DNA from: Schmidtea nova
Lineage: Eukaryota
Length of the DNA stretch: 64,000 bases
Reading direction: 5' to 3'
Assembly: GCA_044892505.1 (NCBI GenBank)
Contig: CM097883.1
Span: 257,238,001-257,302,000 of the forward strand
Both the position numbers and the translations under genes were made by a program. This document shows positions 8,787 through 61,798 of this stretch, one piece after another. The stretch's first letter is position 1. Every line of letters begins with the position of its first letter. A model generated the notes under the pieces. It did not search any database, was not told the DNA's origin, and worked only from the letters and a program-made list of their open reading frames with translations.

Positions 8787-8792
8787 AATTTA

Positions 8793-39644: not shown

Positions 39645-39726
39645 ACTGTTTTCTTTACAGGTAGGTCAATACAATTTGATACTACATTTCATACAATTAT
39701 TTACAAAAATATATTTTCCGCTTTAT

Positions 39727-40909: not shown

Positions 40910-42286
40910 TCAACCATTCTTTCTATCCGCTTTCTCATTCCTTTCCATTTCTATGTATAGGGTGTCTGCATGTAATCGTTCCCATAGGCTTTCTTTCGTT
41001 ATAAACATTGGTTCTCCCGCTGCTAATCCACATTCTGTGGTTGGTTTCTCGCTCGTACTCGCATGTTTCTCTGTCTCAAAGAATTTTTCTACTGGTTTTG
41101 TTACACTTCTGATTCTAATGATGACTCCTACTTTCAAGGGCCATTCTACTAGGTCGTCGTATTCTCCTTTACATAGCGAGAAAAATATTGACACATGTGT
41201 TCCTCGTCCTCTTCCGTCTCCATTTGGGTATAGCTTCAATCTCACTTTAGCTCCGTTTCTCCATAAATAAAATGGTGGGCTTATTACTGCTGTTTTCGTC
41301 ATATTTCTGGCCTCTGTTAATTTGTTTCTAAAATCTGTCACTTTCCACACATATGGTGCGATTGGTAACTTTTCCTCGGTATCCTGGGTGAGTTTGTTGT
41401 ACTGGATTTTCATTCCTTTAGCCAATTCTTCGATAGCTTTTATCTTTTCCTCCATCTTTTCTCGTGTTAGTTCGAATTGCTCTCTGGTTTCCAACAGTAG
41501 GTTTACCATTATCTTGTGTGACTCTATTTCTCTTTCTAATTTTTTGATTGTTTGTTCGGTTTCTTTTGTTGCTTCGTTTGTCATTTCCGCATGCTTTAGC
41601 AATGCTTCCTCCAGATGTTGTTTCATGGTTTTTTGCGTTCTTTTCTCCATACATCTCTGTTTGTTATAAGGGCATTCCCTTGGTTTCTCCGTGCACACTT
41701 TCCAATGTTCTTGTAATTTTACTTCTGCCGTTATCTCGCATTCGTTTGAACATATTCCTACATATTGTCTACATACTTTCTCCTCTTTTACATTCAGGTG
41801 TTCTTCTTCGATCTTTCTCCTCGTTTCTCGAGTTCCACAATATTCGCATAGACTTTCCTCTTCTTTACATTCATCTTTGTGCTGCTCTTTATTCTTTATA
41901 GTTATTTTTTGTTGGCATTTGTTACATTCGGTTCTCTTCTCCTCGCAGTTCTCCAGATGGTTCTCGAGATCGCGTATTTGTCCTTGCCATATACATGGTT
42001 GATTTATACATTCGGTTTTCGTGTTCATGATTTCTCTCTGAGTTGCTCTATCTGGTCCGGTTTCTTCGAATTTTATTTGTCCTTCTTTGCATTCTGGACA
42101 TTCTGGTGGTCTTTTCATACTTAACTCGTGTATGCATTTGGTACATACTCTGCATCCGCATAGGGTTTGTCTTGGTTTCAATATTATGTTTTTACAATTT
42201 ACACAAGTGAGTCTCTGACTCCATTTCCTGTTCTCGGCTCTCAAAATTTCGATTATCCGCTCTTCGGCTTTTCCTTCTGTATTCAT
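40910..42286 (-). CDS. traf: TRAF-family protein (RING, TRAF zinc fingers, coiled coil, MATH/TRAF-C), 458 aa, intronless
   Basis: RING CVNC..KPRQTLCGCRVCTKC..ECPEC; TRAF-type zinc fingers (HLENCEEKRTECNKC, HWKVCTEKPRECPY); MATH hallmarks YVWKVTDF, SPPFY, LKLYPNGDGRGRGTHVSIFF, GEYDDLVEWP. Confidence 0.93.
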   Translation of the reverse strand: MNTEGKAEERIIEILRAENRKWSQRLTCVNCKNIILKPRQTLCGCRVCTKCIHELSMKRPPECPECKEGQIKFEETGPDRATQREIMNTKTECINQPCIWQGQIRDLENHLENCEEKRTECNKCQQKITIKNKEQHKDECKEEESLCEYCGTRETRRKIEEEHLNVKEEKVCRQYVGICSNECEITAEVKLQEHWKVCTEKPRECPYNKQRCMEKRTQKTMKQHLEEALLKHAEMTNEATKETEQTIKKLEREIESHKIMVNLLLETREQFELTREKMEEKIKAIEELAKGMKIQYNKLTQDTEEKLPIAPYVWKVTDFRNKLTEARNMTKTAVISPPFYLWRNGAKVRLKLYPNGDGRGRGTHVSIFFSLCKGEYDDLVEWPLKVGVIIRIRSVTKPVEKFFETEKHASTSEKPTTECGLAAGEPMFITKESLWERLHADTLYIEMERNEKADRKNG

Positions 42287-42377
42287 TCTACAATGATATA
42301 TACACTTGATTTGTTATCTATTTTTTGATTTTTCTTGTTTTTGTTTTTACATATTTACAATTTTTCGCTTTATTTAT

Positions 42378-42859: not shown

Positions 42860-45800
42860 CTATATCACCATCACTGTCTTTCCTTCGTATCGCTCTTCAT
42901 CTTCTATTTGTCTCCAAAATTCTTTACCTTTCGTCCTCCTTTGGAATTCTTTATGTACTTCTTCCGGTAATTCTATACTGTAGTTCATAATCTTTATATC
43001 TGGCCAATGTGTTATTGGTTTCTTGTTGAATACATCATATATCCATATTATTAATAATACTGTTATTACTGGAATAGTTGCTGCTAGTATTCCTAGACCA
43101 ATTAGTTCTCTAACTTGTTTGTTTACGTCCATCTTCGTAATTTCACTCTGGTTAATCATTGGTCCATATTGTCCCTTTAGTTTATTTAGTAGTTGTTCTC
43201 GTTCTTGTTGTTTTCTTTTAACTTCTTTAATTACTTCTTCCGGCGTCCATCTTGCGTAAGGGTCTATTACTATTTGTTCCGCGTCCATTTGTTTCGTTGT
43301 CTGACTTAATTCTTTAAATTCGAGTTTTCTCACTTTCCCTTTGGACGTTGAGTTTACCGGTGTGTAGTACGTTTCGCATTTTTCCTGCTGATTTCCTAAT
43401 ATGTCCGTCTTTTCTACCGCACATATCTCGTATTCTCTATTAAATTTCAGATTTTTGATACTCATTTCTTCTTTTCCTTTTACGTTTTCGCAGTATCGTG
43501 GCTGTCTTTCTTTTTGTTCCTGGACTACTGCCCAACATATTTCTAACGTTTTATTGTCTATTCTCCATAGTATAAGAGTTGCTGTAGTATTCTTTTCGGT
43601 TTTTATTTGTATTTCTTGGTTTTTCTGTTGTCCATTAGGTTTAAAAGTAGTGGTATACCTCGTTTTTCCTTTGTTCCGTTGCCTTCTGCTTTTTCGCGTT
43701 GTCTTTCCAATTCTTGTTCTGGTGGGTGTTTTATATATTTTGCATTCCAGTTCATTTACTGTTATTTTGTCGCTCTTCCTGATCAGGCATATTTCGTACG
43801 TTTGATTACTTTCTAACCCTTCTATCTGTATTGTGGTTGTTCCTCTGTTTGTTCGACATTGCGGCGGTGTATTCTGGTTTGTTTTCTTTTCCTGCTTCTT
43901 CCAGCATACGCCTTTGACGTCCGGTTCTATTCCGGTTAACTCTAACATTATAGTTGTTCTCCGTTTGGTGCGTTTATTTCTTCTTCCTCGTCGTATGAAC
44001 TTCATTGTTTCCCCAGGTTGAAATGTTTTACAAATCGTCGTTCCTTTCTTGTGTCTTTCTTTTTCTAGTAAACATAGTTCATACGTCCTGTCTGCTTTTA
44101 CTTCTGATATCTTGGTTACTTTATTTGTTTTCCTTTTCCGACTCGTCTTTATTTCGCTTACGCCAATTTCTTCGTTGCTTCTGGCCCAACACTTTGGGTT
44201 GGTGTTTTGGGTGTCGTTCATCTCTGTTACTGCCATTGTGTCAATGTCTATCCCTTCTTCTAACCGTTTTAACATTGTTAATATGAGTGCTAAACATAGT
44301 AATTCTGCTTGGTAGGTCACTCTTTCAGTTTCATTTGTGGTTACTCTTACTTCGGGCCTGTCTATGGTAATTTGTATAGTTGGCGTTGTTCGTCTGTCTA
44401 TTGTCTGATGTTTCTTGTTTTTTGTTCCTTGTGTCTCTGTTCTTCCACACTTTCTTACGACATAGTCTCCTTTGGATGACTGCTGTACTGTTATGGTTAC
44501 TTTGGGTGTTAGGTAATTTGCACATGCAATTGTCTTATGTGATCTCGGATCCTTTGGTTTCCGAACGGTGCACATTCTGTACCAAGTATCTAGCTCTAAG
44601 TCATCGATCTCTATGATTTCTTGCTCATATTCTGAGATCCTGCAATCCATTGGACTATTTTGTCCCGATATTTTGTCCTTTTTTGACCAACATACTCGTT
44701 CGATTCCTTTTGCGTTTCCAATTTGTATTGTCGCTTTTTCTTCACATATCATTCCTTGAGTTGGACTAATTAAGGTCATGATTACCGTTAGTAATAATAG
44801 TTCTGGTTTAAAGAATGGGTTTATTGTTTGTTTGTAGCCTGTTCTTTTTACTTCGTTTTTATTTTTATAGTTGTTGTTTCTTTGTTTCCCAAATTCATTG
44901 TTCTTATCATTTTTCTCTGTGTCCCTTCCTTTCTCTTCACTGTCCTCTTTATCTGATAACTTATGATCCTCTGGATTTTCTCGAGTACTATCGTCGTCGT
45001 TTCCTGTATTGTCACCTCCCCTTTGGTCGTTGAACATGTCGTCCTCGACATTAATTGTTTCTATCATTTTTTCATACGTTATGGTTGTGAGTATACTTGC
45101 TTCGTATTCTTGTGTTTCTGCTTGCTTAGGTATTTCCTTATCGGTTAATTTACAATCTAGAATCTCTTTCTTGGCTTTTATCCAATTATTAAGGTACGTT
45201 TTCATTAGTTCTTTCCATTTGTCCGTACGTTCTGTTTCCTTTGGGTTGTTTGTGAATCGTAAATCTTTTCTTCTCATGAAGATATCTATTATCTTTGGCC
45301 ATTTGTTTATTATTAATGCACACTTTATATACAAATTTTGGCCTTGTTCCATGCACTCGTTGATCCTGAATGCTGGTTCATTGGTGTTTGGGTTCATCCA
45401 ATTGAGTATTGCTTCAGTTAGTTCAGCGTTATGCATCATGGAATGTACGCTAGCTTTTTTAACTGTCCTTGTAAGGTATTCTATTTCCTCCTGATTTGTG
45501 ATTGTTTTTATGAAATTTATCACCTCCCAATTGTGCGCTAACAACGCTACGTCTAGTATTGAGCTGTCTTTGTTAGTTCTTCCCATGAGTCCTGCGCCTG
45601 CTTCGTACAGTTCCTGTAACACTCGGGTTTTTGTGTTCGCTCTTGCTGCGAATATCATGAGGGTGTCTCCCTTTTTATCTTTCATGTTCATGTCACTTCC
45701 GCAATCTTGCATCAACCGTGCAATTTCGACTACCCTCCTATTTTTTCCTGCTCGTAAGGCTCTATGTATTGGCAATACTCCATTCTTTGTTAATAAGAAA

Positions 45801-48800
45801 GTCACTGGCATTTCTCTTTTTATGATCATCATATCGTTTTCATTGTAAGTTCCTTCCGCATATGCGTGTACCTTTTCCACAATTGATCCGAGTATCTCCA
45901 GTGTATGTTTAGAATTTTCGAATTCTGGTAATAGTTCTTTTGCTTTGTCCTGTATCGCATCTAACCTTTCTTGATATGGTACCTCTGCGCTGAAAAGTGG
46001 TGTAACTTTCCTTTTGCTTTCTCTTTCCTTTTGACATAGGAATTGTTTGCATTTTTCGGGGTGGTTTAATATGTCTATTAGTTTGTCATACTCTTCCTCC
46101 ACCGTTTTGTATTTATCTTGAAAATTGGATATATCTTTGTAAGTTATCGTCTTGGTTAGCGATTTTGCACACCATTCCCTAATTTTCCTGAATAATGCTT
46201 CTTTTTCACTTTCGAATTTACACTCCTCTTTGTTTTTGGAAATTATGATATTTCTTCTGTCTAATAACGTTAACAGTGCTTTCTGGTCACAAACGAATTT
46301 TAATAGGAATTGTAATAACGTGTTTTGCCCTTCACTGTATACCTCGTTTATATTTAACACCCATGTATCATTTTCGGATCTTTTCCATTTTATTAGCTTG
46401 CGTATTGTTTTGCAGTTACCGATTTTTATTGCCTCCTTGATTATATCACCTTTGATCAGTTCGTCTATTTCCCAAGTGGCCTTCTCGATTATTTGTTTGA
46501 GCATTATCTGATTTGAGCTCCATATTGCGTGATTCAAGACTGTTTTGTTTTCTCTATCGCGTTCCGTCCAGTTGAAATCGGCATTTATCAAAAGGTCTAT
46601 TATTGCTTTATCCGATTTGTAGATGGCTGCTACCATTAATGGTGTTTCTTGTTCGCTATTCCAAAAACCAAGGTGTTGGTTTGTTTCCTTAGCGATTTTT
46701 AGAAATTCTTTTACTCTCTCTACTTCTCCCCATTTTATGGCGTTATGTAATGCTGGTTGTCCTCCTATGTCTTCTAGTGAAAGTATTTCTGGAATCTTTT
46801 CCAGTAGTTCTGAAATGACTGGTTTTGTTGGTAGTCCCCTTGCGTAATCACTAATTATCGACTGAATATCTCTTAATATATCGTCTCTGACATGCCATTT
46901 TCCCATTATTTCTCTGGCTTTTAGTACAATTTCCTTGTTTCTTTTTTCTCGTTGATTGTTCTCTGCTTCGGTACTTTCATTGGTTGCTCTGAGCATATTC
47001 ATTCTGGCTGTCTGGGATCTGGTTATTATTCGTTCTTCTGGCGCTGTGGTTATTGTCTTTGGTACTTTTTTACATCTGCATGTATTAACGTATATTGGTC
47101 GTATCAATGGTCGATTAACAAGTTTTACCTTCACATTGTTTTCCTTTTTGTATATAACTTCGTAAGGGCCTTTTCCTGGTCTTTGTAGTTTTTTAACGGT
47201 TCCTGGTATTATTTCTGGGGTTTCTATCATCACCCAATCTCCGGGTTTAAGATCATTTGTTTTAACATTTTTCTTTTGATCGTGTAGGTCCTTGTAACTT
47301 TCTTGATAAAACTTTATGTTTAGTTCTGCTGTCTTCCATATCTCTTGCATTCGTTCTTTGAATTTGGTGACGTAATCATCTTCCTCCATATATTGAGACA
47401 AAGGTGGTTGATATTCAAGATCTATTGGCATATTGCATTCCCTTCCATACATTAATTGAAATGGACTCAATTTTGTTGCTGCGTGTATCGACATTCGGTA
47501 TGCCATTAGACATAGCTTTATGTACTCATCCCAATCTGTTTGGTGTTTGCTTACATAATTGGATAACATTCGAATCAATGTGCCGTTAAATCTTTCCGTT
47601 TGTCCATTAGTTTGCGGATGATATGGTGACGTTCGTAATTTGGCTATTCTGAAGTAATTTGTTACTTCATCTAGTATTTCGCTCATAAAATTTGTTCCTT
47701 GATCTGTTAGTATTTGTTTCGGGGTTCCGTATCGACAACATATTTCCTCTACTAAAATTCTTGCTACGGTCTTTGCTTTTTGATCCGGCATCGCAAATGC
47801 TTCAGGGAATTTAGTCAAATAATCCGTTATTACCAATATATATTGATTCCCGTTTAAACTTTCTGGCAATGGTCCTATTACATCCATCGCAATGGTAGTC
47901 ATTGGTTCCGCTGGTATTGGCATGGGTTTTAAGGGATTTTTCCATTTCTTCCCACTATCCTTTCTTGTGGCACAAGTTAAACAGTTCTTTATCCATTCCT
48001 TTACGTCTTCGTCCATTGTTGGCCAATAATATTTTTGTCTCATGCGATTTAATGTTTTCTTATCGGACATGTGTCCTCCCAACTTTCCGTCATGGTATTG
48101 AGTTATTATCTCTTTTCGTCTATTACCTGGCAGACACATTAATCGTTTCTCTCCATCTCGTATTAATAACCATCCTTTTTCTATTGTGTATCGATGTTGG
48201 TATTTCCTCATGTGTTCCTTTAACTCTGCATTGTCTTTGAATACATCCATATTTCGTGAGCTTAGGAATTCTATGATGGGTCTTAGTTCTTTATCCTCTT
48301 GCTGATCTTTCTTTAACTCACTGAAATCCAAATCCTCTGCTATCATTATGCATATTCTTTGCACTTCTGGGTCTGTTAGTTCTGGAAACGTTAATCTTGA
48401 CATGCAATCTGCGTTGGCATTCGCTTTTCCTGATTTGAATTTTATATCTGGTGAATATTCTTGTAATTGCATCGCCCATCTCATTAATCTGCTGGATGTT
48501 TCCTTATGTTGTCCTAGCCATACAAGTGGTTGATGGTCTGTGGTTATGCATATGACGTGTCCCCATAATAGATATTTGAAGTGTTTTATTGCTAATATTA
48601 TTGCCAATGCTTCTCTTTCCGTTACTGAATAATTCTTCTCGTGTTTCTTGAATGTTCTGCTATAATATCCGATTACCCGCTCTTTTCCCTCGTCATCATA
48701 TTGTCCTAACACTGCTCCTGCTGCATATCCACTTGCGTCGGTTGCGAGTAAAAATGGCTTTTTGAAGTCCGGGTGAACCAATATTGGTGCAGTTATTAGC

Positions 48801-51800
48801 TTATCTCTCAATGTTTCAAAGGCTGTTTGTTGTTCGCTTCCCCATATGAACGATACGTCTTTCTTTACTAGCTCCTGGATTGGTTTTGCAATCCCTGCGT
48901 AATCCTTTATGAATTTTCTATAGTAACCGCATAATCCGAGAAATTCTTGGATCTGCGTTATCGTCTTTGGTACTGGACATTCTTTTACTTTATCAATGTT
49001 TCTGGGATCTGGTTCCTTTCCTTTTGCGGACACAATATGTCCTAAGAATGTCACTTTCTCCTTTGCCCAATCGCATTTCGATGGTTTGAGCTTGAGTTTC
49101 CATTGTCTCAATCTAACAAATACATCTCTGATATCTTGGATGTGTTGTTCAAATGTGCTTGAGTAGATCAGTAGGTCGTCAATGTAAACCATGCATTGTT
49201 TTATGCCGTGGGTAACGAAATTCATACATCTTTGAAATGATGCTGGCGCATTGGTTAGTCCGAATGGCATTTTCCTAAATTGGTACAAGTCTCTTCCGAT
49301 AGTGAAAGCAGTTTTCTCTTTGTCTTCCTCCTTCATTTTAATTTGCCAGTATCCGCTTTTCAAATCCAATGATGTAAAATATGCCGCTCCTTGTAATGTC
49401 AATAACATCTCGTTGATGTCCGGTAATGGGTAGGTATCCCTTTTTGTAACTGCATTTAATCTCCGATAATCGATACAAAATCGTTGTGTTCCGTCTTTCT
49501 TTTTCACCATTACAACTGGGAATTGCCACGGTGAGCAGCTTGGTTCAATTACTTCTGCGTCTAGCATTTTCTGTACCTCTGCTTCTGCTACTGATTTTTG
49601 CGCTTCAGCTAACTTGTATGGTCTTAACGCAATAGGCGTTTCGTCTGTTAGGGGAATCGTATGTAGTGTGACGTCGCATGTCCCTAGATCTAAATCGAAT
49701 GCTGCGAATATATCTTTATATTCTATCAGTAATCTTTCTAGCTGCTTCTTTTGATCCTCATTTAATAGTTGGCTATCAATGTTCCAAGTGGGTTCCTCCT
49801 CTTTTACTCCTTCTTTTATTGGTATTTCGATATCCATCATTGGAGTTAGTTTACCTAGTCTTTCATTTTCATAAATTATTTTATCCTCTTCATCGAAATT
49901 TACTACAGTTATTGGGATTTCTCCGTTGTCATTCGCACTCACTAATCCCCTTGCCATTGGCAACGACTTTCTCTTTTCAAATCTTTTACTGGGTTCAAAA
50001 ATCATGTCACCTTCTATTGTAGGGTCTATTTTTACGAAGCATATTTTCTCTCTCCGTGCTGGTACGATTATTTGTTTCGAACTTGTTACTTTTGCTTCTA
50101 TTGCGCATATCTGTCCTGTCCTATCCTTTAATCTCATTGTTCCGAGGTCAATAACTATTTCTTTAAATAATGCTGGCATCAGATCCGTGCCTATAATGCA
50201 TGGTACGCTCAGTGCTGGTATTACTGCTACGTACGTTTCGATTTCCGTGTTTTGATGTTTTATCTTTACCCACCATCTTCCGGCAACTTCTACTACTTCT
50301 TTACTGCATGCTATTACGTGAACGTTGGTTCTCTCAATATCCCGTCTTTGTTCTTGTGGTATCCATTTTATATCTATTGCTGAGATATTTGCTCCTGTAT
50401 CAATCATCGCTTCAATTTCCCTTCCGTTAATTTCGATTGTTGTAGTTAATACTGGACCGGTGTTTGATGACATTACTGCAATTGTATGTGAGTCTCCTTG
50501 CGGATCTACGCTTCTGCACCGTCTCGTTCTATAGTCTTCTGGTATCATAGGATATATGTTTGTCATCGGCATCATTTGCATTGTATTTTGTCTCATCCCT
50601 GGTGTTGGTTCTTGGTACATGGTTGGTGGGGGTGCGTAACACTTCCACATTTCCGCTGGATTCTTTTCGACATACTGTGGTACTTGATTTTTAAATACTT
50701 GACCTCCTTCGTTATCATCATCATCGTCGTCACTGGAATCGTCTTGGGTTCTGTACCCTTTCATTCTTTCCCATAGTCCTTTTCTCTCTTTCTTTAGTTG
50801 TTGTCTTGCTTGCTCGTTATTCATTATCTTTTTAAATTTTCGTCCCACCTCTTCATCGGTTCCTTTCATTTTTGCCAGTATTTTTAGGAGTCTCTTTATT
50901 CGGTGAATATCTTTCGAATGACCGTGTAATACCATTGTTTTAGCCAGAAATGGTAAGAATCCTACCACCAATTTCCAATTTACTTTCTTTTCTCTTTTAT
51001 AGATGTCAAAACAGGCTAACATTTGCGTTATTATTACCCGTATTATTTGTATAATTAGTATAACACCAAGTATTCCTGCCATCATTTGTCCAAATATTAA
51101 AAATCTTCCCCACATCGCTTTCATCATGTTTTCCGTTGCCTTCTTAAAGTGGGCTGGTGACAATAATAATTCGTAATTTGGTCCACCTTGGTAATTTGTT
51201 CCTCCTGTTATTGTTACAATACTGGATAACACCGCTTCTCGTCTTGCCGGAAATAGTATGTTTTGTCTTGCTGCTTCTAAATCCTTTGCGCTATAGAATC
51301 CCATATTGCTTACGTCTACGTCTTTAAATTTTCGTCCTTTTGATAGTTGCATCAATTCAAATTCCCTTGGTGCTGGTACCTCTGTTCTTGACGGAAACAT
51401 AACCCAATTTCCGTCTGGTTTTTGGTATAGTGGTCCATATGCGTTGCTGCAATTGAAAGGATTTGGTTCGAAGCTTATTGGATTTATGATTCTTGTCACT
51501 GGTTGTACATATCTTACTTTCCCTTTATATTCGATTTCTAGTTCGTTAGTACACTGACCTGGTTGTAGTTTTGTCATTGTCGCTACCTTCGCATTTGTCT
51601 TTTTACATATGTATACGTACATGACCTCTCCGACTACTCTTCCAAAATGACCTTCTCTTAATGGTAATAATGGCATTGCACTATCCGGGTTTGTGATTGC
51701 TACTGCTAATTTTGTCTTTAATATTTCCCTATTTAATATGCAATCGTTGTTTATTAAATCGTAATACACTTTTTGTAGTGACGCTTGTCCTCTATGGAAT

Positions 51801-54800
51801 AGAAAATCCATTTTATTGTTCATGTAAAGGTGTAATTTAACATCGTTCGTGTGTACTTTGCGTTTCGCACTAGGTACTTCTTGTTTTGATACAAAAATGC
51901 CGGGGTAGTTGGTTTCCAACATGGCTACTCCGCATTTCAAGGCTGTTTTTCCTTTTACAAACCTCATTCCGATATCTGCATCTGAGGTAATTAGTACCGT
52001 TGGTGTATTTCTCATTTTAATTTGTTTTTCTTGTGTTCGGGTTTCAATCTTTTTCTCTCCCCGTACTGTGTCTTGAAGTATTTTTCCTCTTGCTGCCTCG
52101 TCTTCTTCTTCCTCTTGGAAGGTTTTCCCTTGTATCTCATCGAATTCTGCTTCCTTTAACAGTTGTAGTTGACATTCCTTTCCTCGTATCTGGTAGGTTA
52201 GGGTTGACATACCAGTCTGACAAGTGTTTGACTCGATTTTGCACATAGGTAGAGTTTTCATTTCTCCCGTCGTTGGATCGAAGAATGCCTCGTACGTTTT
52301 TAGTTCCACTGTATACGTATCTATTACCACTAGGTTTGTTGCTGCTACTCCGAATATTGGATATGTTGCTCCTTGGCAGTACCCTTCTCCTCCCGTAATA
52401 GCTCCTGCTACATAATATGTTTGTTGCAATATCACTCCCGTTTTTCCTCTTATCTTTACTCTATCTCTAGTCTCTACTTCTCCATGTTTAAATAATTTTT
52501 CACAGTCTTCTCCTTGCAGCATTACCGATTCTCTTTCCGTTCCTGGCATCACGATTGCTGAATAATGGCGGTGCCCACAATAAAAAGCAAATCTGGTTTT
52601 ATAAACTTTGCATTCTCTGACCATTGTTCTTATCAGTTCAGCTTCCTGATATACGTGGTATAATTGTCTCTTTTTTAATGTTTTTAGCTCCGTTGGGGTT
52701 GCGTCTTTACATTGTTCTGTCCCTCGTAATGAGTATTTTTCACCTAATGCCATTTGATCACAATCGAATACTTCAAATGCTGTTGCTCCGTCAGTACTAA
52801 TCATCCATATTAACATCATCATAATGATAGAACTCAGGTTTAGTGATGATTTCCCGTTTCCTGTTCCCGACTTTTCCTTTTCCAATTCTCCCAATATCTC
52901 TTCGAATTTCTTTTTCATATTTTTGGCTTGGTTTTTCTTTTGGTTCGTTTTTGTGAATGTTTCCCATCCTCCTTTACTGATGATGTACGGTTCTATTTCT
53001 TTCTCTATAATTTTGGCTGTATTCTTTATATGTCTTTCAAGTGCTGTGGGTTTCAGTCGACCTCTACTCAGTGTCAGCAGATTGTAGATGGTGTATGCCA
53101 TAGCTATTAAATATTTGTTATCCGTCTCTGCTCCTTCCGTTAACTTCTTTATCAACATCGTGGTTCCTTGCCAATCTAGGTGGTTTGACCTTGTCTTCTC
53201 TTTTATTAGTTCTGGTAGGATTGGTGCGATGGCGCTATGCAGTGATTTCGCCCTTTCGCTTATTTCATTTATTCTCCACCATTTCTTTAATTCCGGATCG
53301 ATTATTGCCAGTATTTCCATTAACATCTTTGATATCCATTCCTCGCCTTGGTATGTTTGTGTTGTTTCTTTTTCTTTCGTTACGGCTATTTTATTTAGTT
53401 TCTTTAGACACAAATCCCATTGATCCCGTCTTTTTTCCTCTCTTGATTTTATAACTACATTTGCTGGATCCATCTTGGGTCTACCTCTAGGTCGTTTATC
53501 CATTGTCGTGCCCGTTTCTACTAATCTTGTTTCTCGTCCAGTTTCTTCTGTGACGTCTCTTGGTTCATTGGCTCTTTCTTCTAACCATCTTTCCATTTCT
53601 TGTGTGAATTGTACGTTTTCTACATTTGCCCTCCTTGTTTCCTCTTCTGCTATTTCATTTACTTCTTCGATGATTATTTCTTGTTCAACTTCATCTTCGG
53701 TGTTGGTTACCGGTATTGCTGTTGGTAATTCCTGAATTCTTTCGAAAATATTATCATCTTTCTCTTTTGTTAGCTCTATTAACTCCTCTAACATATCATC
53801 GCTATCTGTAAAAATTTCGTCTACATCGTATGGTTCTGGTGGTGTTCTTTCTCTTGTCTCTCTTGGTGTTGTTCTAGCTTGTTCTGAGCTTGTTCCTGGA
53901 GTCCTTACCGATTTCATTGGGCTCGGCGTACTCATACTTCCTTTTGGTTTCTTTTCCTCTTTCAATTTCAATGGTTGACCTGCTATTGCTGCTACTGTCA
54001 ATGTATTTGCGATATCTAATTGCGCTGGCGTTATTCCAATTTCTAAGCTGTTATCTAATGATCGTCCTTGGTGTTGTAAATGGAATGGTGGTTCATATCT
54101 CAATTTCTTTTTAATGTCTCGAACTTTCTCCGCTATCCCTACCCAAAACTCTTCCTTTTCTTGGTTCGGATATACTATTCTTAGGTGTACTTTCTGTGGC
54201 GATTCCTGCGAGAATTCTTGGTTTCTCCATTTTTTAATTACGTGATCCAATTGTTCTGGACACCACTCGTTAACTCTTTTGTATTCGGCGATTGCTTTTG
54301 CTACTTTACGCAAGCATGTTATGTCTTCTCCATTAACTACGAAAAAATCTGCGAGACCTTTTACTACTTTTCTCTTGCCGTGCGCATTGGTTTTTAATAT
54401 TTCGACAAATTCTTCCGTTTTTTGTTTTTCTCTTTCCAACCACATGGTTGTCGTTTCTGGTCCGTCTAAATCTGCTGGCATGGCTTTTCTTGTTACCATA
54501 CAGACTCTTCCGGTTTCCGGTTTGTGATCGTCTTCTATGCCTATTCCGTATTCCTCTTCGTATTCGCCTGCTTTTGGTTCCCAACATTTTCCTCGTTCGT
54601 TCCATTGTTTTTCTACAGGTGTTCGTAATCGTCTGTTGAGATTGAGTTCTTCTAATACATCTTCCCATTCTGGCCAAATCCGCCAATTTCGATAAATGTC
54701 TACTATTTGTTGTAATTTATGCACAACTTCTTTTTGTCGTTCCCGTTCTCTTTTCTCATCCTTAGCAGTTTCTCTTGGTGTATCGTCCATTCTGATAACG

Positions 54801-57800
54801 TGGATGGTTTGGTGATTATCCCATATACCAATTTTATATAGCCGTCTTTCATCGTGATCCCATAATACATGTTCGTTGTATTTCATGATTATGTCATCTT
54901 CCCATTCTTCTTCTGGTTCTCTTTGTAATAGTGTCTCGTTGATGACATTTACTAATTCTTTTATGGTACAATCTGCTACCACTTCAATTTCTTTGGTATC
55001 CTCATTAGGTAACTCTACTGCAATTTTCAGATCTGTTATTTTCCCTTGTCTGAACATTGCTTTTCCCATTTTTGCAATTACTTTTCCGTATGAGATCTGT
55101 GACCATCTCGTGTGACTTGTGTCACGTATGCATTCGATACATCGTTTCAACTTTTCGTATTCGCTTCTCATTAACTCCTTTCTATGTTTTTTGATTTGTG
55201 GGATGATTTGTTCTATCATGGAATTTAGATTTCCTCGTAAGATTCGTCCTTTCTCATATTCTAACCGTGGTTTTATCTTCCTCTCGAAACACATATTTGC
55301 TTCTTTTGCTACTTCTTGTAGGTTCTCTTCTCTCTTATCATCGCATATCGATAATGTTGTCACCTCTCCTGGCCATATGCCTGTTTCTATCAAATGCGTC
55401 CTTTTCTTCACTAGTCCATTCTGTGAATAGAGGAATTTGTTTTTATATGAACTCCCTAATCTGTCTTCCACCCATTGATAAATATCTTCCGTGAGTGGAG
55501 TTTTGATCCAAATCCTTGGCAAACATGTTTTTATCTCTATTAGGATTATATATTCATGGAGTGGTTCTTTTAATAATTTTCCTACGTATTGGCTTAGTGT
55601 TTCTACTTCCCGGCCTGGTAACCACTCTTTATAGTTCATTTGTAATATTGCTCTCATGAATTTTCTATAGTGTTTCTTGTCAATGAATTCCTCATTATAT
55701 ATTACTTCTAGCGTATTATCTAATAATTTCTGGATCTCGTCTTCTTTTACTTGAATAGTTTCTGGTGTCTTTACTACTTCTATCTTTTTGTCTTCAATTT
55801 CCGGTTCGTCTAGCATGTCCCCTGCTAGACTACTGACGTCACTATCCTCTTCATCGTCTGAAAAATTCTTTGCCTGGCCTCTCAACATGTTAATGTGTTT
55901 TATCTGGTTAATTTCACTTGGTGTATTTTCCGTTGGTCTTGTTTCACTTTTAATAGCTTTTTGTGTTGATTCACTCTTGTCGTCTACTACTTCGACCTTT
56001 CTCAATTTTCGTTCTAACTCGTCTATTTCTCCCAACCGTCTTCGTATCATTTTCCCTTTAAATATTCGACTGATTCGTGTTTCGTGACGCACTGGCGATG
56101 GAATTCCTTCTGGTTCTATTTCCTTGATTACCATCACATTTCTTTTTGTCTCTACTACTCCCATGTTTTCCCATGTATCCGTTAGTTTCAATTTTACTTC
56201 TGGTGCACCTTCTATTTTTAGGAATGCTTCTCTGGGCAGTTTCGTTACTCCTGGAGCCATTTCATTCACTTTATTGAACAATATTTCTACTTCTTCCTTT
56301 ATGTTATATTGGAATCGAAACACGTGCTTGTTTGGCAAAATTACCATCATTCCTCTTTTCCCGAGTTTCCTTTTCTCTTCTTGGTTCCCTTCTTTTTCTA
56401 CTTCCTTTTCTGTTTCTTTTTCTGCTTCTTCATCTTCTTGTATTATCTCTTTTCGGCCTTCGTTGTTGGTTGGATTTGGGTTTGTTGGATTTATTTCTGG
56501 TACAGTCTCTTTCTCGTGGGTATTTGTTTGATTGGTTGCTCTCATCATATTAATTCTTAGAGGTTGTCGTTCTCTTTCTTGCTGTTTTTGTTCCTCTTCT
56601 CTTTGTATTCTTGCCCATTCCTGAGCATGTCGTGCTTGACTTTCCCGATTCAATCGTTCGTTTTCGCTTTCTATTTTTCTCATCATATTGATTTGTTGTT
56701 GACCTGTTTGCGGATTTCCTCTGGTTGTATTGTTTATCAGCTCCGTCAATCTTTGGACCTCTTGCATTAAATGTATCTCTTTAGTGGTATTTTTATTTTG
56801 GTTATTATTATTACTATTTGGTTGGTTTCCGTATTCCGGTTGGTTTCCATTATTTGGCTGATTTCCATAATTCTGTCGGTTTCCACCAGTTGGTTGGTTG
56901 CCATAGTTTTGTCGGTTTCCGGTATTCTGCCAGTTTCCTCGTTGATTGCTTCTTTGTCCGCAATTTCTTGATAGGTGTCCAGGCCGTCCACAATTAAAAC
57001 AGGTTATTGTGTAACATCTGCTCTCTGAATGCCCTTTTACTCCACATTTTCCACAATTCAAGTTCTGATAACATTCTTGTTGCCAATGTCCCAATTTCCC
57101 ACATGTTTTGCATTGTTTCGTTGGTCCTTGGGGGTTGTAATTGTTTTGATTTCCGTAATTTGATACTTTATTCCCTTCATTCCTTCGTTGCGGTGGTGGT
57201 CGGTTTAATTGTTGTGAATTTGGAATGTGGTTATTCAGGTTCACTTCTTGTTCGTTTTGTGCTGTATCCATAGCTAAATAGATTCTACCATCATTTCCTA
57301 TCATGTGTAGTTCAAATCTATTAGCTGTTTCTAGTGCTTGGTCGATGGTTTTACAACCTTGACATCCAACTTGCGCTCTTATGTCGGGTCTTCTTAATCC
57401 TCCCACAAAGATAGCTGCCATTAACTCCTCATTTATTGGGCTGTCTTGATTAAAGATCAACTTTGCTAACTTTTTCAATTCGCTTGCATATACCGCATTC
57501 GATTCATTTATCTTTTGTTTCCTCATTGAGAATTCCGTGAATGCCTCATTCAATACTTTATTTATTCCAAAGGTTTGTTGGAAAAAGTCCTTTATCGCTG
57601 ACCAACTTGTAGGTGGATTAGTTCCATTCTTTGCTTCCAAATATAGATCTAATGCGCTATCTTTCAAATATAGCTGAATTCTGCTTACAGTTGTTTCTGG
57701 TTTCCACTTGCATACTTCCACGAATATGCCAAATTCCTTTAAGAAAGTTTCTAATTTACTCGCATCTCCATTAAACGGTTCTCCGGAAAATTTGTCTTTT

Positions 57801-58249
57801 ATCTCTTCTCTTGGTTCGCTCATTTCAATTCCGCTGTCTGTAGTTATTTTACTTTCGTTTCCTCTTGTTTCTAGTTCACTGTTAGGTTCGTCACTTGAAT
57901 TTCGGTCGATCTCAGTTTCCTTTGCTGATTCGTTATCTGATGCTTTACTATCGTTATCGGTATCGTCACTTTCTGTTTCTTGTTCTACTTCGTCTTCTAT
58001 TTCTTCTATATAATCGTTGTTGGTTTTGTCGACTTCTATTTCACTTATTGGGTTTCTCTCGGGTTCTGCTTGATTTTCTTTGTTGCTTGAACTGTTGCTT
58101 GTTACTGATAATTTATCGTTTTCGATAATCGACTTTTGTATTATTATCTGCCTTGCTTTACTTCCTTTTGGGCCTTTCTGATTATTATTCTTGGTAGCTT
58201 TATTCTTTTCTGCTGGTTTTATTATGACACTCTTTTCTCCTTTTCTCAA
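42860..58249 (-). CDS. gag-pol: 5129-aa polyprotein: Gag (3 CCHC), 2 UBL-like, AT-hook, Bcl-2-like, env-like glycoprotein, PR, dUTPase-like linker, RT, RNase H, IN, ankyrin repeats, FN3-like membrane protein
   Basis: CCHC at 56960-57113; DTG at 50393-50401; YIDD at 49175-49186; TDAS at 48731-48742; IN GGH..CLTC, AMDVIG, TDQGTNF, TNGQTERFN and GPY; ankyrin TPLMVAA-type repeats; hydrophobic spans near 52810, 51060, 44780 and 43075. Annotated start is TTG; first ATG near residue 143. Confidence 0.96.
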   Translation of the reverse strand: MRKGEKSVIIKPAEKNKATKNNNQKGPKGSKARQIIIQKSIIENDKLSVTSNSSSNKENQAEPERNPISEIEVDKTNNDYIEEIEDEVEQETESDDTDNDSKASDNESAKETEIDRNSSDEPNSELETRGNESKITTDSGIEMSEPREEIKDKFSGEPFNGDASKLETFLKEFGIFVEVCKWKPETTVSRIQLYLKDSALDLYLEAKNGTNPPTSWSAIKDFFQQTFGINKVLNEAFTEFSMRKQKINESNAVYASELKKLAKLIFNQDSPINEELMAAIFVGGLRRPDIRAQVGCQGCKTIDQALETANRFELHMIGNDGRIYLAMDTAQNEQEVNLNNHIPNSQQLNRPPPQRRNEGNKVSNYGNQNNYNPQGPTKQCKTCGKLGHWQQECYQNLNCGKCGVKGHSESRCYTITCFNCGRPGHLSRNCGQRSNQRGNWQNTGNRQNYGNQPTGGNRQNYGNQPNNGNQPEYGNQPNSNNNNQNKNTTKEIHLMQEVQRLTELINNTTRGNPQTGQQQINMMRKIESENERLNRESQARHAQEWARIQREEEQKQQERERQPLRINMMRATNQTNTHEKETVPEINPTNPNPTNNEGRKEIIQEDEEAEKETEKEVEKEGNQEEKRKLGKRGMMVILPNKHVFRFQYNIKEEVEILFNKVNEMAPGVTKLPREAFLKIEGAPEVKLKLTDTWENMGVVETKRNVMVIKEIEPEGIPSPVRHETRISRIFKGKMIRRRLGEIDELERKLRKVEVVDDKSESTQKAIKSETRPTENTPSEINQIKHINMLRGQAKNFSDDEEDSDVSSLAGDMLDEPEIEDKKIEVVKTPETIQVKEDEIQKLLDNTLEVIYNEEFIDKKHYRKFMRAILQMNYKEWLPGREVETLSQYVGKLLKEPLHEYIILIEIKTCLPRIWIKTPLTEDIYQWVEDRLGSSYKNKFLYSQNGLVKKRTHLIETGIWPGEVTTLSICDDKREENLQEVAKEANMCFERKIKPRLEYEKGRILRGNLNSMIEQIIPQIKKHRKELMRSEYEKLKRCIECIRDTSHTRWSQISYGKVIAKMGKAMFRQGKITDLKIAVELPNEDTKEIEVVADCTIKELVNVINETLLQREPEEEWEDDIIMKYNEHVLWDHDERRLYKIGIWDNHQTIHVIRMDDTPRETAKDEKRERERQKEVVHKLQQIVDIYRNWRIWPEWEDVLEELNLNRRLRTPVEKQWNERGKCWEPKAGEYEEEYGIGIEDDHKPETGRVCMVTRKAMPADLDGPETTTMWLEREKQKTEEFVEILKTNAHGKRKVVKGLADFFVVNGEDITCLRKVAKAIAEYKRVNEWCPEQLDHVIKKWRNQEFSQESPQKVHLRIVYPNQEKEEFWVGIAEKVRDIKKKLRYEPPFHLQHQGRSLDNSLEIGITPAQLDIANTLTVAAIAGQPLKLKEEKKPKGSMSTPSPMKSVRTPGTSSEQARTTPRETRERTPPEPYDVDEIFTDSDDMLEELIELTKEKDDNIFERIQELPTAIPVTNTEDEVEQEIIIEEVNEIAEEETRRANVENVQFTQEMERWLEERANEPRDVTEETGRETRLVETGTTMDKRPRGRPKMDPANVVIKSREEKRRDQWDLCLKKLNKIAVTKEKETTQTYQGEEWISKMLMEILAIIDPELKKWWRINEISERAKSLHSAIAPILPELIKEKTRSNHLDWQGTTMLIKKLTEGAETDNKYLIAMAYTIYNLLTLSRGRLKPTALERHIKNTAKIIEKEIEPYIISKGGWETFTKTNQKKNQAKNMKKKFEEILGELEKEKSGTGNGKSSLNLSSIIMMMLIWMISTDGATAFEVFDCDQMALGEKYSLRGTEQCKDATPTELKTLKKRQLYHVYQEAELIRTMVRECKVYKTRFAFYCGHRHYSAIVMPGTERESVMLQGEDCEKLFKHGEVETRDRVKIRGKTGVILQQTYYVAGAITGGEGYCQGATYPIFGVAATNLVVIDTYTVELKTYEAFFDPTTGEMKTLPMCKIESNTCQTGMSTLTYQIRGKECQLQLLKEAEFDEIQGKTFQEEEEDEAARGKILQDTVRGEKKIETRTQEKQIKMRNTPTVLITSDADIGMRFVKGKTALKCGVAMLETNYPGIFVSKQEVPSAKRKVHTNDVKLHLYMNNKMDFLFHRGQASLQKVYYDLINNDCILNREILKTKLAVAITNPDSAMPLLPLREGHFGRVVGEVMYVYICKKTNAKVATMTKLQPGQCTNELEIEYKGKVRYVQPVTRIINPISFEPNPFNCSNAYGPLYQKPDGNWVMFPSRTEVPAPREFELMQLSKGRKFKDVDVSNMGFYSAKDLEAARQNILFPARREAVLSSIVTITGGTNYQGGPNYELLLSPAHFKKATENMMKAMWGRFLIFGQMMAGILGVILIIQIIRVIITQMLACFDIYKREKKVNWKLVVGFLPFLAKTMVLHGHSKDIHRIKRLLKILAKMKGTDEEVGRKFKKIMNNEQARQQLKKERKGLWERMKGYRTQDDSSDDDDDDNEGGQVFKNQVPQYVEKNPAEMWKCYAPPPTMYQEPTPGMRQNTMQMMPMTNIYPMIPEDYRTRRCRSVDPQGDSHTIAVMSSNTGPVLTTTIEINGREIEAMIDTGANISAIDIKWIPQEQRRDIERTNVHVIACSKEVVEVAGRWWVKIKHQNTEIETYVAVIPALSVPCIIGTDLMPALFKEIVIDLGTMRLKDRTGQICAIEAKVTSSKQIIVPARREKICFVKIDPTIEGDMIFEPSKRFEKRKSLPMARGLVSANDNGEIPITVVNFDEEDKIIYENERLGKLTPMMDIEIPIKEGVKEEEPTWNIDSQLLNEDQKKQLERLLIEYKDIFAAFDLDLGTCDVTLHTIPLTDETPIALRPYKLAEAQKSVAEAEVQKMLDAEVIEPSCSPWQFPVVMVKKKDGTQRFCIDYRRLNAVTKRDTYPLPDINEMLLTLQGAAYFTSLDLKSGYWQIKMKEEDKEKTAFTIGRDLYQFRKMPFGLTNAPASFQRCMNFVTHGIKQCMVYIDDLLIYSSTFEQHIQDIRDVFVRLRQWKLKLKPSKCDWAKEKVTFLGHIVSAKGKEPDPRNIDKVKECPVPKTITQIQEFLGLCGYYRKFIKDYAGIAKPIQELVKKDVSFIWGSEQQTAFETLRDKLITAPILVHPDFKKPFLLATDASGYAAGAVLGQYDDEGKERVIGYYSRTFKKHEKNYSVTEREALAIILAIKHFKYLLWGHVICITTDHQPLVWLGQHKETSSRLMRWAMQLQEYSPDIKFKSGKANANADCMSRLTFPELTDPEVQRICIMIAEDLDFSELKKDQQEDKELRPIIEFLSSRNMDVFKDNAELKEHMRKYQHRYTIEKGWLLIRDGEKRLMCLPGNRRKEIITQYHDGKLGGHMSDKKTLNRMRQKYYWPTMDEDVKEWIKNCLTCATRKDSGKKWKNPLKPMPIPAEPMTTIAMDVIGPLPESLNGNQYILVITDYLTKFPEAFAMPDQKAKTVARILVEEICCRYGTPKQILTDQGTNFMSEILDEVTNYFRIAKLRTSPYHPQTNGQTERFNGTLIRMLSNYVSKHQTDWDEYIKLCLMAYRMSIHAATKLSPFQLMYGRECNMPIDLEYQPPLSQYMEEDDYVTKFKERMQEIWKTAELNIKFYQESYKDLHDQKKNVKTNDLKPGDWVMIETPEIIPGTVKKLQRPGKGPYEVIYKKENNVKVKLVNRPLIRPIYVNTCRCKKVPKTITTAPEERIITRSQTARMNMLRATNESTEAENNQREKRNKEIVLKAREIMGKWHVRDDILRDIQSIISDYARGLPTKPVISELLEKIPEILSLEDIGGQPALHNAIKWGEVERVKEFLKIAKETNQHLGFWNSEQETPLMVAAIYKSDKAIIDLLINADFNWTERDRENKTVLNHAIWSSNQIMLKQIIEKATWEIDELIKGDIIKEAIKIGNCKTIRKLIKWKRSENDTWVLNINEVYSEGQNTLLQFLLKFVCDQKALLTLLDRRNIIISKNKEECKFESEKEALFRKIREWCAKSLTKTITYKDISNFQDKYKTVEEEYDKLIDILNHPEKCKQFLCQKERESKRKVTPLFSAEVPYQERLDAIQDKAKELLPEFENSKHTLEILGSIVEKVHAYAEGTYNENDMMIIKREMPVTFLLTKNGVLPIHRALRAGKNRRVVEIARLMQDCGSDMNMKDKKGDTLMIFAARANTKTRVLQELYEAGAGLMGRTNKDSSILDVALLAHNWEVINFIKTITNQEEIEYLTRTVKKASVHSMMHNAELTEAILNWMNPNTNEPAFRINECMEQGQNLYIKCALIINKWPKIIDIFMRRKDLRFTNNPKETERTDKWKELMKTYLNNWIKAKKEILDCKLTDKEIPKQAETQEYEASILTTITYEKMIETINVEDDMFNDQRGGDNTGNDDDSTRENPEDHKLSDKEDSEEKGRDTEKNDKNNEFGKQRNNNYKNKNEVKRTGYKQTINPFFKPELLLLTVIMTLISPTQGMICEEKATIQIGNAKGIERVCWSKKDKISGQNSPMDCRISEYEQEIIEIDDLELDTWYRMCTVRKPKDPRSHKTIACANYLTPKVTITVQQSSKGDYVVRKCGRTETQGTKNKKHQTIDRRTTPTIQITIDRPEVRVTTNETERVTYQAELLCLALILTMLKRLEEGIDIDTMAVTEMNDTQNTNPKCWARSNEEIGVSEIKTSRKRKTNKVTKISEVKADRTYELCLLEKERHKKGTTICKTFQPGETMKFIRRGRRNKRTKRRTTIMLELTGIEPDVKGVCWKKQEKKTNQNTPPQCRTNRGTTTIQIEGLESNQTYEICLIRKSDKITVNELECKIYKTPTRTRIGKTTRKSRRQRNKGKTRYTTTFKPNGQQKNQEIQIKTEKNTTATLILWRIDNKTLEICWAVVQEQKERQPRYCENVKGKEEMSIKNLKFNREYEICAVEKTDILGNQQEKCETYYTPVNSTSKGKVRKLEFKELSQTTKQMDAEQIVIDPYARWTPEEVIKEVKRKQQEREQLLNKLKGQYGPMINQSEITKMDVNKQVRELIGLGILAATIPVITVLLIIWIYDVFNKKPITHWPDIKIMNYSIELPEEVHKEFQRRTKGKEFWRQIEDEERYEGKTVMVI

Positions 58250-58798
58250 CGGGATTACTTTTGTATACTCAATTTTCTTGTCTTATCGTGTTCCGATTCT
58301 TTTCTTCCTTAGTTGATTGGTTTGGTTTGATTGATTTATCTAAAATACAAATGTCACTTCAACGATACTCTATTGTTATCGTTGCGCTTTTATTCCCTTT
58401 TTACGGGACTTCTCATTACTGGGTTTCTATTATTTTTCCCCATTCCCAGATTCCCCTTTATTTAAGTCTATTTAAATTATCTATATACTAGTCACAATTA
58501 TCTATTTAGTCATAACAATTATCTATCGGTTATTAAAATACATCAATTATTTTTCCCGCGGTCTCCCAATTTATTTGTCGTTCGAACGCTCTAATTCCCT
58601 GAGTCATTTGACTCGATTATTATTTTTTCATCTCTTTATCTTTCTCTCTGCTAGCCTCTAATTATTAATTCTGCCGGTCTTTCCGGTCAGCTCCTATTTC
58701 TCGATTCTACTTGCATGCATTATTTTAGGTCGCATAATCAGCTTTACTCGCATTTCTCTATTATCGGTGCGCACTATTCTCATTATCGTCGACGATCA

Positions 58799-59897: not shown

Positions 59898-60359
59898 TTA
59901 TAAATAAACCACAATTTTATCAGCTACAGAGAAATTGCACATGGGGCACTCATCACACTTATTCGCACAGTTTTTACAGAATCGAAAATGTCCACATGGC
60001 AAAAACATTATTTGGATTTCACTGTCTTCGCATATGTAACATTGTTTATATTGTTTTGCTGCCTCGACCCCTTGCGACATCCATCGGTTATATGTTAGAC
60101 TTAACTGCTGTTCTATATGTCGGCATCTGATATTCAACTCGGCATCCTCTAATCGTGCTTTGTACCATTTATATCGCGTATTTATATCGAGTTTATTTAC
60201 TTTCTCTATGATTTTTATTAACTCAGTTGTTTCCTCAGTTTGTGTCGTAGGTTCCTCATATTCGGATGCTCTTATTCGGGTTATTTTTTCGCAGACTGTC
60301 TCAAATGTATCGTTCTCGGTGTTGAAAAATTCTTCGATTTCTTTCAGTTTTTCCTCCAT
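59898..60359 (-). CDS. 153-aa protein with a C-terminal IAP/MDM2-type RING finger
   Basis: CYICEDSEIQIMFLPCGHFRFCKNCANKCDECPMC followed by a terminal hydrophobic KIVVYL, as in IAP-type C3HC4 RINGs. Confidence 0.85.
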   Translation of the reverse strand: MEEKLKEIEEFFNTENDTFETVCEKITRIRASEYEEPTTQTEETTELIKIIEKVNKLDINTRYKWYKARLEDAELNIRCRHIEQQLSLTYNRWMSQGVEAAKQYKQCYICEDSEIQIMFLPCGHFRFCKNCANKCDECPMCNFSVADKIVVYL

Positions 60360-60662
60360 TTCCTAGATAATTTATTTAATTACTGTGTTAATATTATTCG
60401 AAAAGTAGTACTGTGTTTCGTTTTCGACAGTTTATAGCCTCCCCCCGTGTTTCGGTAAATTGTCGTCCCGACCTGTTATTTATGAATGCATTTGTTCAAT
60501 TTATCTACTAATTTGTTTTAATTCTCTGTTTGTAATTATCTATTTCCACGCAACTCACTTTTATCTCGATTACTCTTTCGGTTACTATTTCTACTCACAA
60601 AATTCTTATTTTAAATTTCTCTGTTGTCATTGGGTTCGCATTTTCGCATAAAAACAAAGTTG

Positions 60663-60680
60663 ATCCCGGCTGAGCCCCCA
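60663..60680 (-). promoter_or_regulatory. Primer-binding site of element B (tRNA-Pro type)
   Basis: TGGGGGCTCAGCCGGGAT, 6 nt inside the 5' LTR boundary; identical to the element A PBS and spacer. Confidence 0.88.
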
Positions 60681-61213
60681 AATTTATGCTGGGATTATGG
60701 GTGGGTTTTAAGTAATTCAAATAAACAATTAATCATACTAGGGATTCCGCGCCCATAACCATACATAACATGACTACTACACGCGTATGCCCTTGACTAT
60801 TCCCTACTAGTCAAGTTGGTACTGCATACGGTGGTGGAAAAATGATGGGCAGGTGAGCTTTGTCGCCAAAACTACTCCCCATTTATCTTCCCTCGGGTTC
60901 TTGCTGCCGATAGAAGGTCTTACGCATTTACATTCTATGGATGTTCGTTTCCTACTGAATTTTATACTACATATACTTATGATCTATCACACGCTTTTCC
61001 CAATGACGCTCTCCCTCGCTGTTCTACAAGCCTACGAAAACTCTCGCTGCTAAGTAACGGTCGGTGTAGGTTTTACGATGCGATTTTTAGTTCTACGAAT
61101 TACTTATGTAGTCTTATTTTATTTAGTGAAATCCCACGATGAGAGAAAAAATTTACACAGTAATACTTTATTAAAATAATAAAGACAGGTTGTTATGTTA
61201 CATGGAGATTTTC

Positions 61214-61798
61214 CTATTCAAACTCCAGGCTAATCTCCTGGATTAACTCTGCTTCGGTTAAGGAGTTCAGGTGGTGGATTTGTTCGTCCAGGCGCCTTGC
61301 AAATTCTCGGCGACGACGACGCTGTCGCGATCCCATTCGATGTTTTCGAAGCTGTGGGTTTATGACCGGTGCTGACGCTATTGTTCTCGGGGGATCACTG
61401 GGAAAAATAGGCAAATCTTCCGTTGTAAGAGTGGGTGCCATGATGATTTCCTCTTCCGTCCCGCAAGCGACATCTTGGTGAGTGCATTGTATCCAGCGCT
61501 GAGCCGTGATCGGCCGGATTAGCGCTCGTAATTCGGAGTCGATGTAACTTCTTGTTACTGCGTTCAGGCAATTTCGGAGTTCTCGCTGGACGGCATCTAA
61601 TTCCAATTTGGTTGTAGCCAATGCTTCCTGCACTCGCTCGAGTTTTTTCGACTGGTCCTTCATCTGTTCGGGCGAGAACCACTTCGCTTTCAATTCATCA
61701 TTGGCGACCGTGAGTCGCTTGATCTGTCGCTGCTGGTCCCTCAGCTTTCTCTCTTGAATTTGTCCCATGATTTTCTTCGAATTTTCTGAAGTCGGCAT
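61214..61798 (-). CDS. LTR-encoded 194-aa protein; 5' LTR copy
   Basis: Identical translation to 36153-36737. Confidence 0.6.
   Translation of the reverse strand: MPTSENSKKIMGQIQERKLRDQQRQIKRLTVANDELKAKWFSPEQMKDQSKKLERVQEALATTKLELDAVQRELRNCLNAVTRSYIDSELRALIRPITAQRWIQCTHQDVACGTEEEIIMAPTLTTEDLPIFPSDPPRTIASAPVINPQLRKHRMGSRQRRRRREFARRLDEQIHHLNSLTEAELIQEISLEFE

Follow-up and report, generated by a model that had tools for sequence, protein, structure and literature searches.

The window analysed here is a stretch of 64,000 nucleotides (nt) from Schmidtea nova (assembly GCA_044892505.1, contig CM097883.1, positions 257,238,001 to 257,302,000, forward strand), whose minus strand carries a giant long terminal repeat (LTR) retrotransposon with an envelope gene, env, embedded in its polyprotein. 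We consider it likely that this is the intact env of a recently inserted Burro-type Ty3/gypsy element, encoding a predicted class III fusogen that would be cut from a membrane-threaded polyprotein. Env lies in a single open reading frame (ORF) with a clear order of domains, matches one protein family, occurs in many near-identical copies and diverges mainly at silent sites. The in-frame arrangement itself is real but is not a discovery, having already been published as the env of Burro elements in a 2019 review (PMC6431247).

The env segment and its predicted fold

The env segment is read on the minus strand and is made up as follows, with positions in amino acids (aa) referring to the polyprotein ORF.

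52778..52849, minus strand: internal segment resembling a signal peptide, aa ~1812-1835, a signal-peptidase site being predicted before aa 1836 (hydropathy and site rule)
51113..52777, minus strand: env ectodomain, aa 1836-2390 (555 aa), with 14 Cys (ORF translation)
50999..51112, minus strand: env transmembrane span, aa 2391-2428, hydropathy peak 2.57 (hydropathy)
50903..50998, minus strand: conserved tail following the transmembrane span, membrane-proximal and partly hydrophobic, aa 2429-2460 (relatives and copies)

By hydropathy and a simple rule for small residues at -3/-1, the segment has the signal, ectodomain and C-terminal membrane span of a type I protein. This agrees with a preliminary description made from the sequence alone, which had proposed a signal-like segment, a Cys-patterned ectodomain of ~556 aa, within one residue of the length found, and a transmembrane span near 51008-51110, where a strong hydrophobic span does lie. 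The signal-like segment is short, falling below the 19-residue hydropathy cut of 1.5 but scoring 2.52 over 11 residues, and it passes the signal-site rule (a hydrophobic core followed by small residues at -3/-1; a simple rule rather than SignalP or DeepTMHMM). The rule is passed at the env start by the window copy and by 12 of 14 relatives, these 14 being the matches that reach the env start and have upstream sequence, while the background pass rate is 123 of 27,654 positions (0.44%); the two relatives P0006 and P0057 fail its second, -3/-1, part. A comparable transmembrane span is present in the 10 relatives displayed. The ectodomain holds a single N-glycan sequon, at aa 2277, and no furin-type site was found in it.

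The family assignment is beyond chance, because the segment matches the Pfam family Monjiviricetes_fusion with an expect value (E) of 5e-72 and has 819 relatives at E<=0.001 in a search of 1.84 billion representatives, 150 of which were listed. Twelve of the 14 ectodomain Cys are conserved at at least 90% in a 94-row alignment. When a profile of 94 relatives was compared with PDB sequences, herpesvirus gB made up 33 of the 34 matches listed, although these were weak (best E 7e-4), and the alignment falls on the central helix with two Cys aligned; searched by itself, the ectodomain sequence matched no PDB sequence at E<=1. The AlphaFold2 model of the ectodomain is of high confidence, with a predicted local distance difference test (pLDDT) of 91.8 and a predicted template modelling score (pTM) of 0.75, and has a central helix of 48 residues. 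Compared with the PDB by Foldseek, it matched herpesvirus gB in all 35 rows displayed (E 9e-14 to 1e-11, over ~630-720 columns), and in BFVD its best matches were chu-like and related virus glycoproteins, with E down to 6e-38 and template modelling scores (TM-scores) up to 0.76. Candidate fusion-loop hairpin turns are suggested by the model's secondary structure near ectodomain residues 68-72 and 125-136. Env is thus a class III protein of the gB/chuvirus G type and not an F-type Env, its fold being a predicted one. The earlier suggestion of a chuvirus-type, class III-like glycoprotein is upheld by the Pfam match, the profile match to gB and the fold searches, and the AlphaFold and Foldseek comparison which it had proposed recovered both gB and chu-like glycoproteins.

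Architecture and age of the element

The element is 28,303 bp long on the minus strand, with identical 3,242-bp LTRs that have TG...CA ends and a 4-bp target-site duplication, from which a recent insertion follows. Its features, in the direction of reading, are these.

60687..63928, minus strand: 5' LTR, 3,242 bp, identical to the 3' LTR (LTR comparison)
60663..60680, minus strand: stretch resembling a primer-binding site, lying 6 nt inward of the 5' LTR end, perhaps tRNA-Pro-like (sequence)
59898..60362, minus strand: accessory ORF of 154 aa between stops, carrying a C3HC4 RING finger (PF13920, E 9e-12)
42860..58282, minus strand: polyprotein ORF, 5,140 aa stop to stop, with no internal stop (ORF list)
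56960..57112, minus strand: Gag nucleocapsid with CCHC knuckles (pattern and Pfam)
52883..53362, minus strand: putative Bcl-2-like domain directly before env (a relative's weak match and PMC6431247)
50171..50443, minus strand: aspartic protease, aa 2614-2704 (PF00077, E 1.5e-8)
49031..49507, minus strand: reverse transcriptase core, aa 2926-3084 (PF00078, E 3e-38)
48455..48844, minus strand: RNase H, aa 3147-3276 (Pfam)
47615..48130, minus strand: integrase zinc finger and core, aa 3385-3556 (Pfam)
46481..46762, minus strand: ankyrin repeats, aa 3841-3934 (Pfam)
40910..42313, minus strand: accessory TRAF-like ORF downstream of the polyprotein, with a Cys-rich N-terminal part and a MATH domain (PF22486, E 2e-21)
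39727..40830, minus strand: accessory ORF, 367 aa, without a Pfam match, which also occurs in sister families (ORF list)
39072..39665, minus strand: short ORF of 197 aa in which a hydrophobic stretch is visible by eye, without a significant Pfam match (ORF list)
35626..38867, minus strand: 3' LTR, 3,242 bp, the element being flanked by the 4-bp target-site duplication (LTR comparison)

The first Met of the polyprotein is aa 154 (nt 57823), and its domain order in Pfam is Gag zinc knuckles, env, protease (PR), reverse transcriptase (RT), RNase H (RH), integrase (IN) and ankyrin repeats. Three CCHC knuckles were found by pattern (aa 391, 410 and 428, spanning aa 391-441), where Pfam scores two stretches. 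Env had been placed between Gag and protease, and the frame and the order are indeed as described; the implied adjacency is looser, with ~1,370 aa of other sequence separating the knuckles from env and the protease starting ~190 aa past the env transmembrane span. The Bcl-2-like domain was not detected by Pfam in the window copy, although a relative, P0005, has a sub-threshold Bcl-2 match (E 1e-3) at the equivalent position. Pfam found no ubiquitin-like domain in the window copy, and no BIR domain was detected in the RING ORF or in any of the 12 segments that were scanned. The order PR-RT-RH-IN is common to BEL/Pao elements as well. On its domain content, and on the descriptions in PMC6431247 and PMC13524379, the element is assigned to the Ty3/gypsy LTR retrotransposons.

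The LTRs also contain minus-strand ORFs of 198 aa (61214-61810 and 36153-36749) and 176 aa (37054-37584) without Pfam matches, and three short tandem-repeat arrays (units of ~45, 41 and 30-31 bp) lie at 58782-59450, after the RING ORF and ahead of the polyprotein.

Relatives, genomic copies and constraint

Of the 21 relatives scanned, mostly the long ones among the 150 listed, 10 carry env ahead of a protease domain in the same frame. In a quick tree of 56 rows, comprising all 16 polyprotein-embedded envs together with a random 40 of the 96 stand-alone ones, 14 of the embedded envs form one group with a Shimodaira–Hasegawa-like approximate likelihood ratio (SH-aLRT) support of 98; the other two are placed among stand-alone proteins, and one of these has DUF5641 before it. 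A sister family whose env is 66% identical shares the layout. As a separate observation, P0001, P0002, P0003, P0006, P0009 and P0017 appear to carry at least two tandem protease-like domains after env.

Within the genome, 78 of 3,612 candidate env matches were scored and all 78 are 98-100% identical; env is free of stops in 68 of them, and in 32 it is enclosed by stop-free frames of at least 5,000 aa. Three pairs of copies differ in the env ectodomain by 133 silent and 3 replacement changes, giving a ratio of replacement to silent differences per site (pN/pS) of 0.006, for copies drawn from the 30 best env protein matches and with the window copy in every pair. The same pairs give 0.044 for RT and RH together and 0.30 for a module at the C-terminus of the polyprotein, which is taken up below. 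Silent divergence between the window and the copies L047-L052 is patchy along the ORF, one pair having none from PR to IN and 11% in env, a pattern suggestive of recombination among the copies. The region is covered by contigs of three runs of a single study, possibly the source of the window itself, and among the contig joints listed for these runs (whose kind is unspecified) none skips env, although contigs of this sort show presence and not absence.

Comparison with known elements

The 2019 review describes the Burro elements of planarians, in which env lies in frame between gag and pol and, more closely, between BCL2 and the protease, and calls this the first case of its kind (PMC6431247). 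The group treated in its section 7 comprises GYPSM1/Burro1-4 of dugesiid planarians, and among Burro-like elements it gives an intact one from Dugesia tigrina with a 5,140-aa ORF1 and a MATH/TRAF domain in an accessory ORF. The likeness to the window element is extensive, taking in a giant LTR element of nearly 30 kb, a single huge ORF1 of ~5,000 aa (here 28,303 bp and 5,140 aa), Gag, a BCL2-like region, env placed in frame before the protease, PR-RT-RH-IN and ankyrins, although the BCL2-like region of the window is seen only by way of P0005 and the review. The ORF1 length of the Dugesia tigrina element, which the review describes without showing its sequence, matches exactly. Of the Burro accessory set, ankyrin, MATH and RING domains are found in the window element, whereas BIR was not detected in the 12 segments scanned. 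There are further differences: the review puts the MATH/TRAF ORF upstream of ORF1 where it is downstream here, the Dugesia tigrina element has two CCHC knuckles against three by pattern or two by Pfam, and the Burro env is described as gypsy-Env-like where that of the window is class III. The review makes no mention, in its section 7, of an internal signal site or of a C-terminal membrane module with fibronectin type III (FN3) domains.

An eLife paper (PMC13524379) reports that flatworms, nematodes and bryozoans have GAG-ENV-POL elements whose env is of the gB type, and classes Smed_errantivirus_1-6 as having a Platyhelminthes HSV/gB-type env of cysteine type C1a. These are like the window element in their Gag-Env-Pol order, gB-type fold and multicopy state, and by eye the spacings of the eight Cys of domains I-II in Smed_errantivirus_5 (11, 25, 42, 45, 7 and 16) are the same as in the window, the last alone differing (78 against 80 in the window). 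Its main text does not contain the words 'polyprotein', 'in-frame' or 'fused', and polyprotein processing is therefore not treated there; nor are Girardia or Dugesia among its nine listed flatworm elements. With these two papers in print (PMC6431247, PMC13524379), the preliminary description was right about the in-frame position of env but not about its implied novelty, and its premise that env lies 3' of pol does not hold as a rule for Ty3/gypsy elements outside insects. No passage on env was found in the excerpts of the Cer1 paper (PMC3315495).

Glycoproteins of chuviruses and other Monjiviricetes, and those of the Anakin BEL/Pao elements of mosquitoes, share the Pfam family and predicted fold of the window env, yet chuvirus glycoproteins occur as stand-alone viral genes or in BEL/Pao elements (10.1101/2020.02.15.950899), whereas the window env is embedded in a polyprotein. 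The chu-like top structural matches are just 16-20% identical to it, and in the tree the embedded envs form a cluster distinct from the stand-alone ones. Herpesvirus gB resembles it in a full-length structural alignment, the central helix and two aligned Cys, but is only ~11% identical, has a longer ectodomain and works with gH/gL and gD.

Proposed processing and function

In the model we favour, the polyprotein would be made and threaded at the endoplasmic reticulum (ER), where the internal signal at aa ~1812-1835 would direct the ectodomain to the lumen and its N-terminus would be freed by signal peptidase before aa 1836. The transmembrane span at aa 2391-2428 would then stop transfer, leaving PR-RT-RH-IN and the ankyrin repeats in the cytosol, and the element's own protease would probably release Pol from the Env tail. 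If the first cut is made by signal peptidase, Pol would be attached to Env and not to Gag. Env may then form trimers and enable the fusion of particles with new cells, so that the element would act as an endogenous retrovirus spreading from cell to cell; selection on such an entry step would account for a conservation of env equal to that of the enzymes. No description of the internal signal site was met in the literature searched, which was not searched for it specifically, and unexamined papers or supplements may cover it.

Several points weigh against this model. Fusion, particles, cleavage and protein expression are all proposed from the sequence and a structural model, the whole-chain TM-scores to gB are just 0.35-0.46, and the signal segment is short enough to have missed the 19-residue cut, its site being judged by a simple rule. 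The grouping of embedded envs comes from a quick version of the tree, and the choice of best-matching copies biases the env pN/pS low, with the three pairs sharing the window copy. Herpesvirus gB needs the partner glycoproteins gH/gL and gD, and how gB-type retroelement envs bring about entry is described as unknown (PMC13524379).

The alternative that survives best is that the gB-like protein serves an intracellular step, such as budding at the ER or nuclear envelope and fusing out again, or the anchoring of Pol, or else that it has a role beneficial to the host, in place of infection between cells. The architecture would indeed tether Pol to the Env tail, and the related Burro1 is reported, second-hand, to support planarian stem cells by way of an accessory IAP-like region (PMC13465017). 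We nevertheless regard this as unlikely, since strong constraint acts on the entire ectodomain and its Cys pattern, where a membrane anchor would need less, and the closest structural relatives of env are virus entry proteins.

Retroviruses and the errantiviruses of Drosophila express env from spliced mRNAs. Env might likewise be made as its own protein from a spliced or subgenomic RNA, the continuous frame serving mainly for Gag-Pol or being incidental, and the one-to-one output of Gag, Env and Pol that a single ORF implies would be unusual. Both env junctions are open, however, not only in the window copy but in the 32 of 78 scored copies with the long frames, in the 66%-identical sister family and in the 10 of 21 relatives, and by eye 14 relatives share no Met position ahead of the hydrophobic core; we hold this route to be quite improbable.

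That the segment is a class I fusogen of the baculovirus F or gypsy Env type is very hard to credit. It is favoured by the HHpred match to gypsy Env, at 96.7% probability, reported for the env region of Burro elements (PMC6431247), but the same review notes mononegavirus glycoprotein matches for that region, the flatworm envs are classed as HSV/gB type in PMC13524379, and Pfam, profile and fold searches alike indicate class III. The F-type assignment was accordingly rejected, with no furin-type site and no F-type family or structure among the Pfam, profile and fold rows displayed. The idea that a viral glycoprotein gene landed by chance in a single retrotransposon copy, or that the arrangement is an error of assembly, has next to no likelihood even though chuvirus glycoprotein genes are often endogenised beside retroelements (10.1101/2020.02.15.950899), being refuted by the dozens of dispersed genome copies that share the frame, the embedded envs of relatives, the sister family and other diverged families with the same arrangement, the identical LTRs with their target duplication and the contigs of three runs that cover the region.

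A second membrane module

Beyond Env, the C-terminus of the polyprotein holds a further candidate membrane protein.

43022..44824, minus strand: second membrane module, aa 4487-5087, a predicted type I membrane protein (hydropathy, model and Foldseek)

It consists of a signal-like segment that passes the signal-site rule (aa 4509-4511), three or four Cys-bearing predicted FN3-like domains and a transmembrane span at aa 5057-5087. A conserved internal hydrophobic stretch at aa ~4660-4676 (nt ~44255-44305, minus strand) also passes the rule (aa 4685-4692) and may be a second signal or a transmembrane span. The module is kept in four of five sister-family stretches, belonging to three families (L053/L054, L055 and L056), at 33-54% identity; L056 is without one repeat, and the module is absent from the remaining stretch, L057. 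On the pN/pS values given above it evolves faster than env (0.30 against 0.006).

The model of the module is poor overall (pLDDT 47.9), and the FN3 assignment therefore rests on three local beta domains, at pLDDT ~55-78, together with Foldseek, whose matches are mostly FN3-repeat proteins (best E 6e-7). FN3 was also suggested for the module by protein Atlas matches scoring 0.85, below 0.9. Pfam gave no match for the window copy and, in one of five members, one FN3-family match at E 0.78; the PDB profile search with the module gave no match, and blastp found no internal repeat in it. No description of the FN3 module was met in the literature searched, although unexamined Burro papers or supplements may cover it.

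A role for the module as an attachment or decoy partner of Env would be a guess. It belongs to a wider picture that we put forward tentatively and think doubtful as a whole, in which Burro would be an enveloped virus whose polyprotein crosses the ER several times to yield a class III fusogen and an FN3-repeat partner for receptor binding or immune decoy, with the enzymes packaged via the Env tail. A cut by signal peptidase between Gag and Env-Pol would mean that the enzymes reach particles in this way and not as Gag-Pol.

Other features of the window

At 612-9030 (minus strand) lies a second, degenerate or non-autonomous relative. Its Gag-like ORF of 1,030 aa bears zinc knuckles, a 56-bp tandem array occupies 4561-6094, and its LTR-like pieces show 77-86% similarity to the LTR of the large element. 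An ordinary LTR element of ~5.8 kb at 19971-25765 has near-identical LTRs and minus-strand ORFs for RT, RNase H and integrase, and a 280-aa ORF with a weak zf-C4 match overlaps one of its LTRs. Two paralogous, intronless ORFs resembling seven-transmembrane receptors (18461-19444 and 29360-30412, both minus strand) are ~78% alike in DNA and have weak 7tm_1 matches, and several inverted repeats of 41-73 bp at 12976-18225 resemble small non-autonomous DNA transposons.

Implications

As an enveloped retroelement that is intact, young and present in many copies, the element makes a good example, and the related Burro1 is studied in the stem cells of the animal. If the processing model holds, capsid, envelope and enzymes would all come from one membrane-threaded polyprotein, and packaging via the Env tail, if true, would be a route unlike that of retroviruses. 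In the second membrane module such a gB-type fusogen may have a partner.

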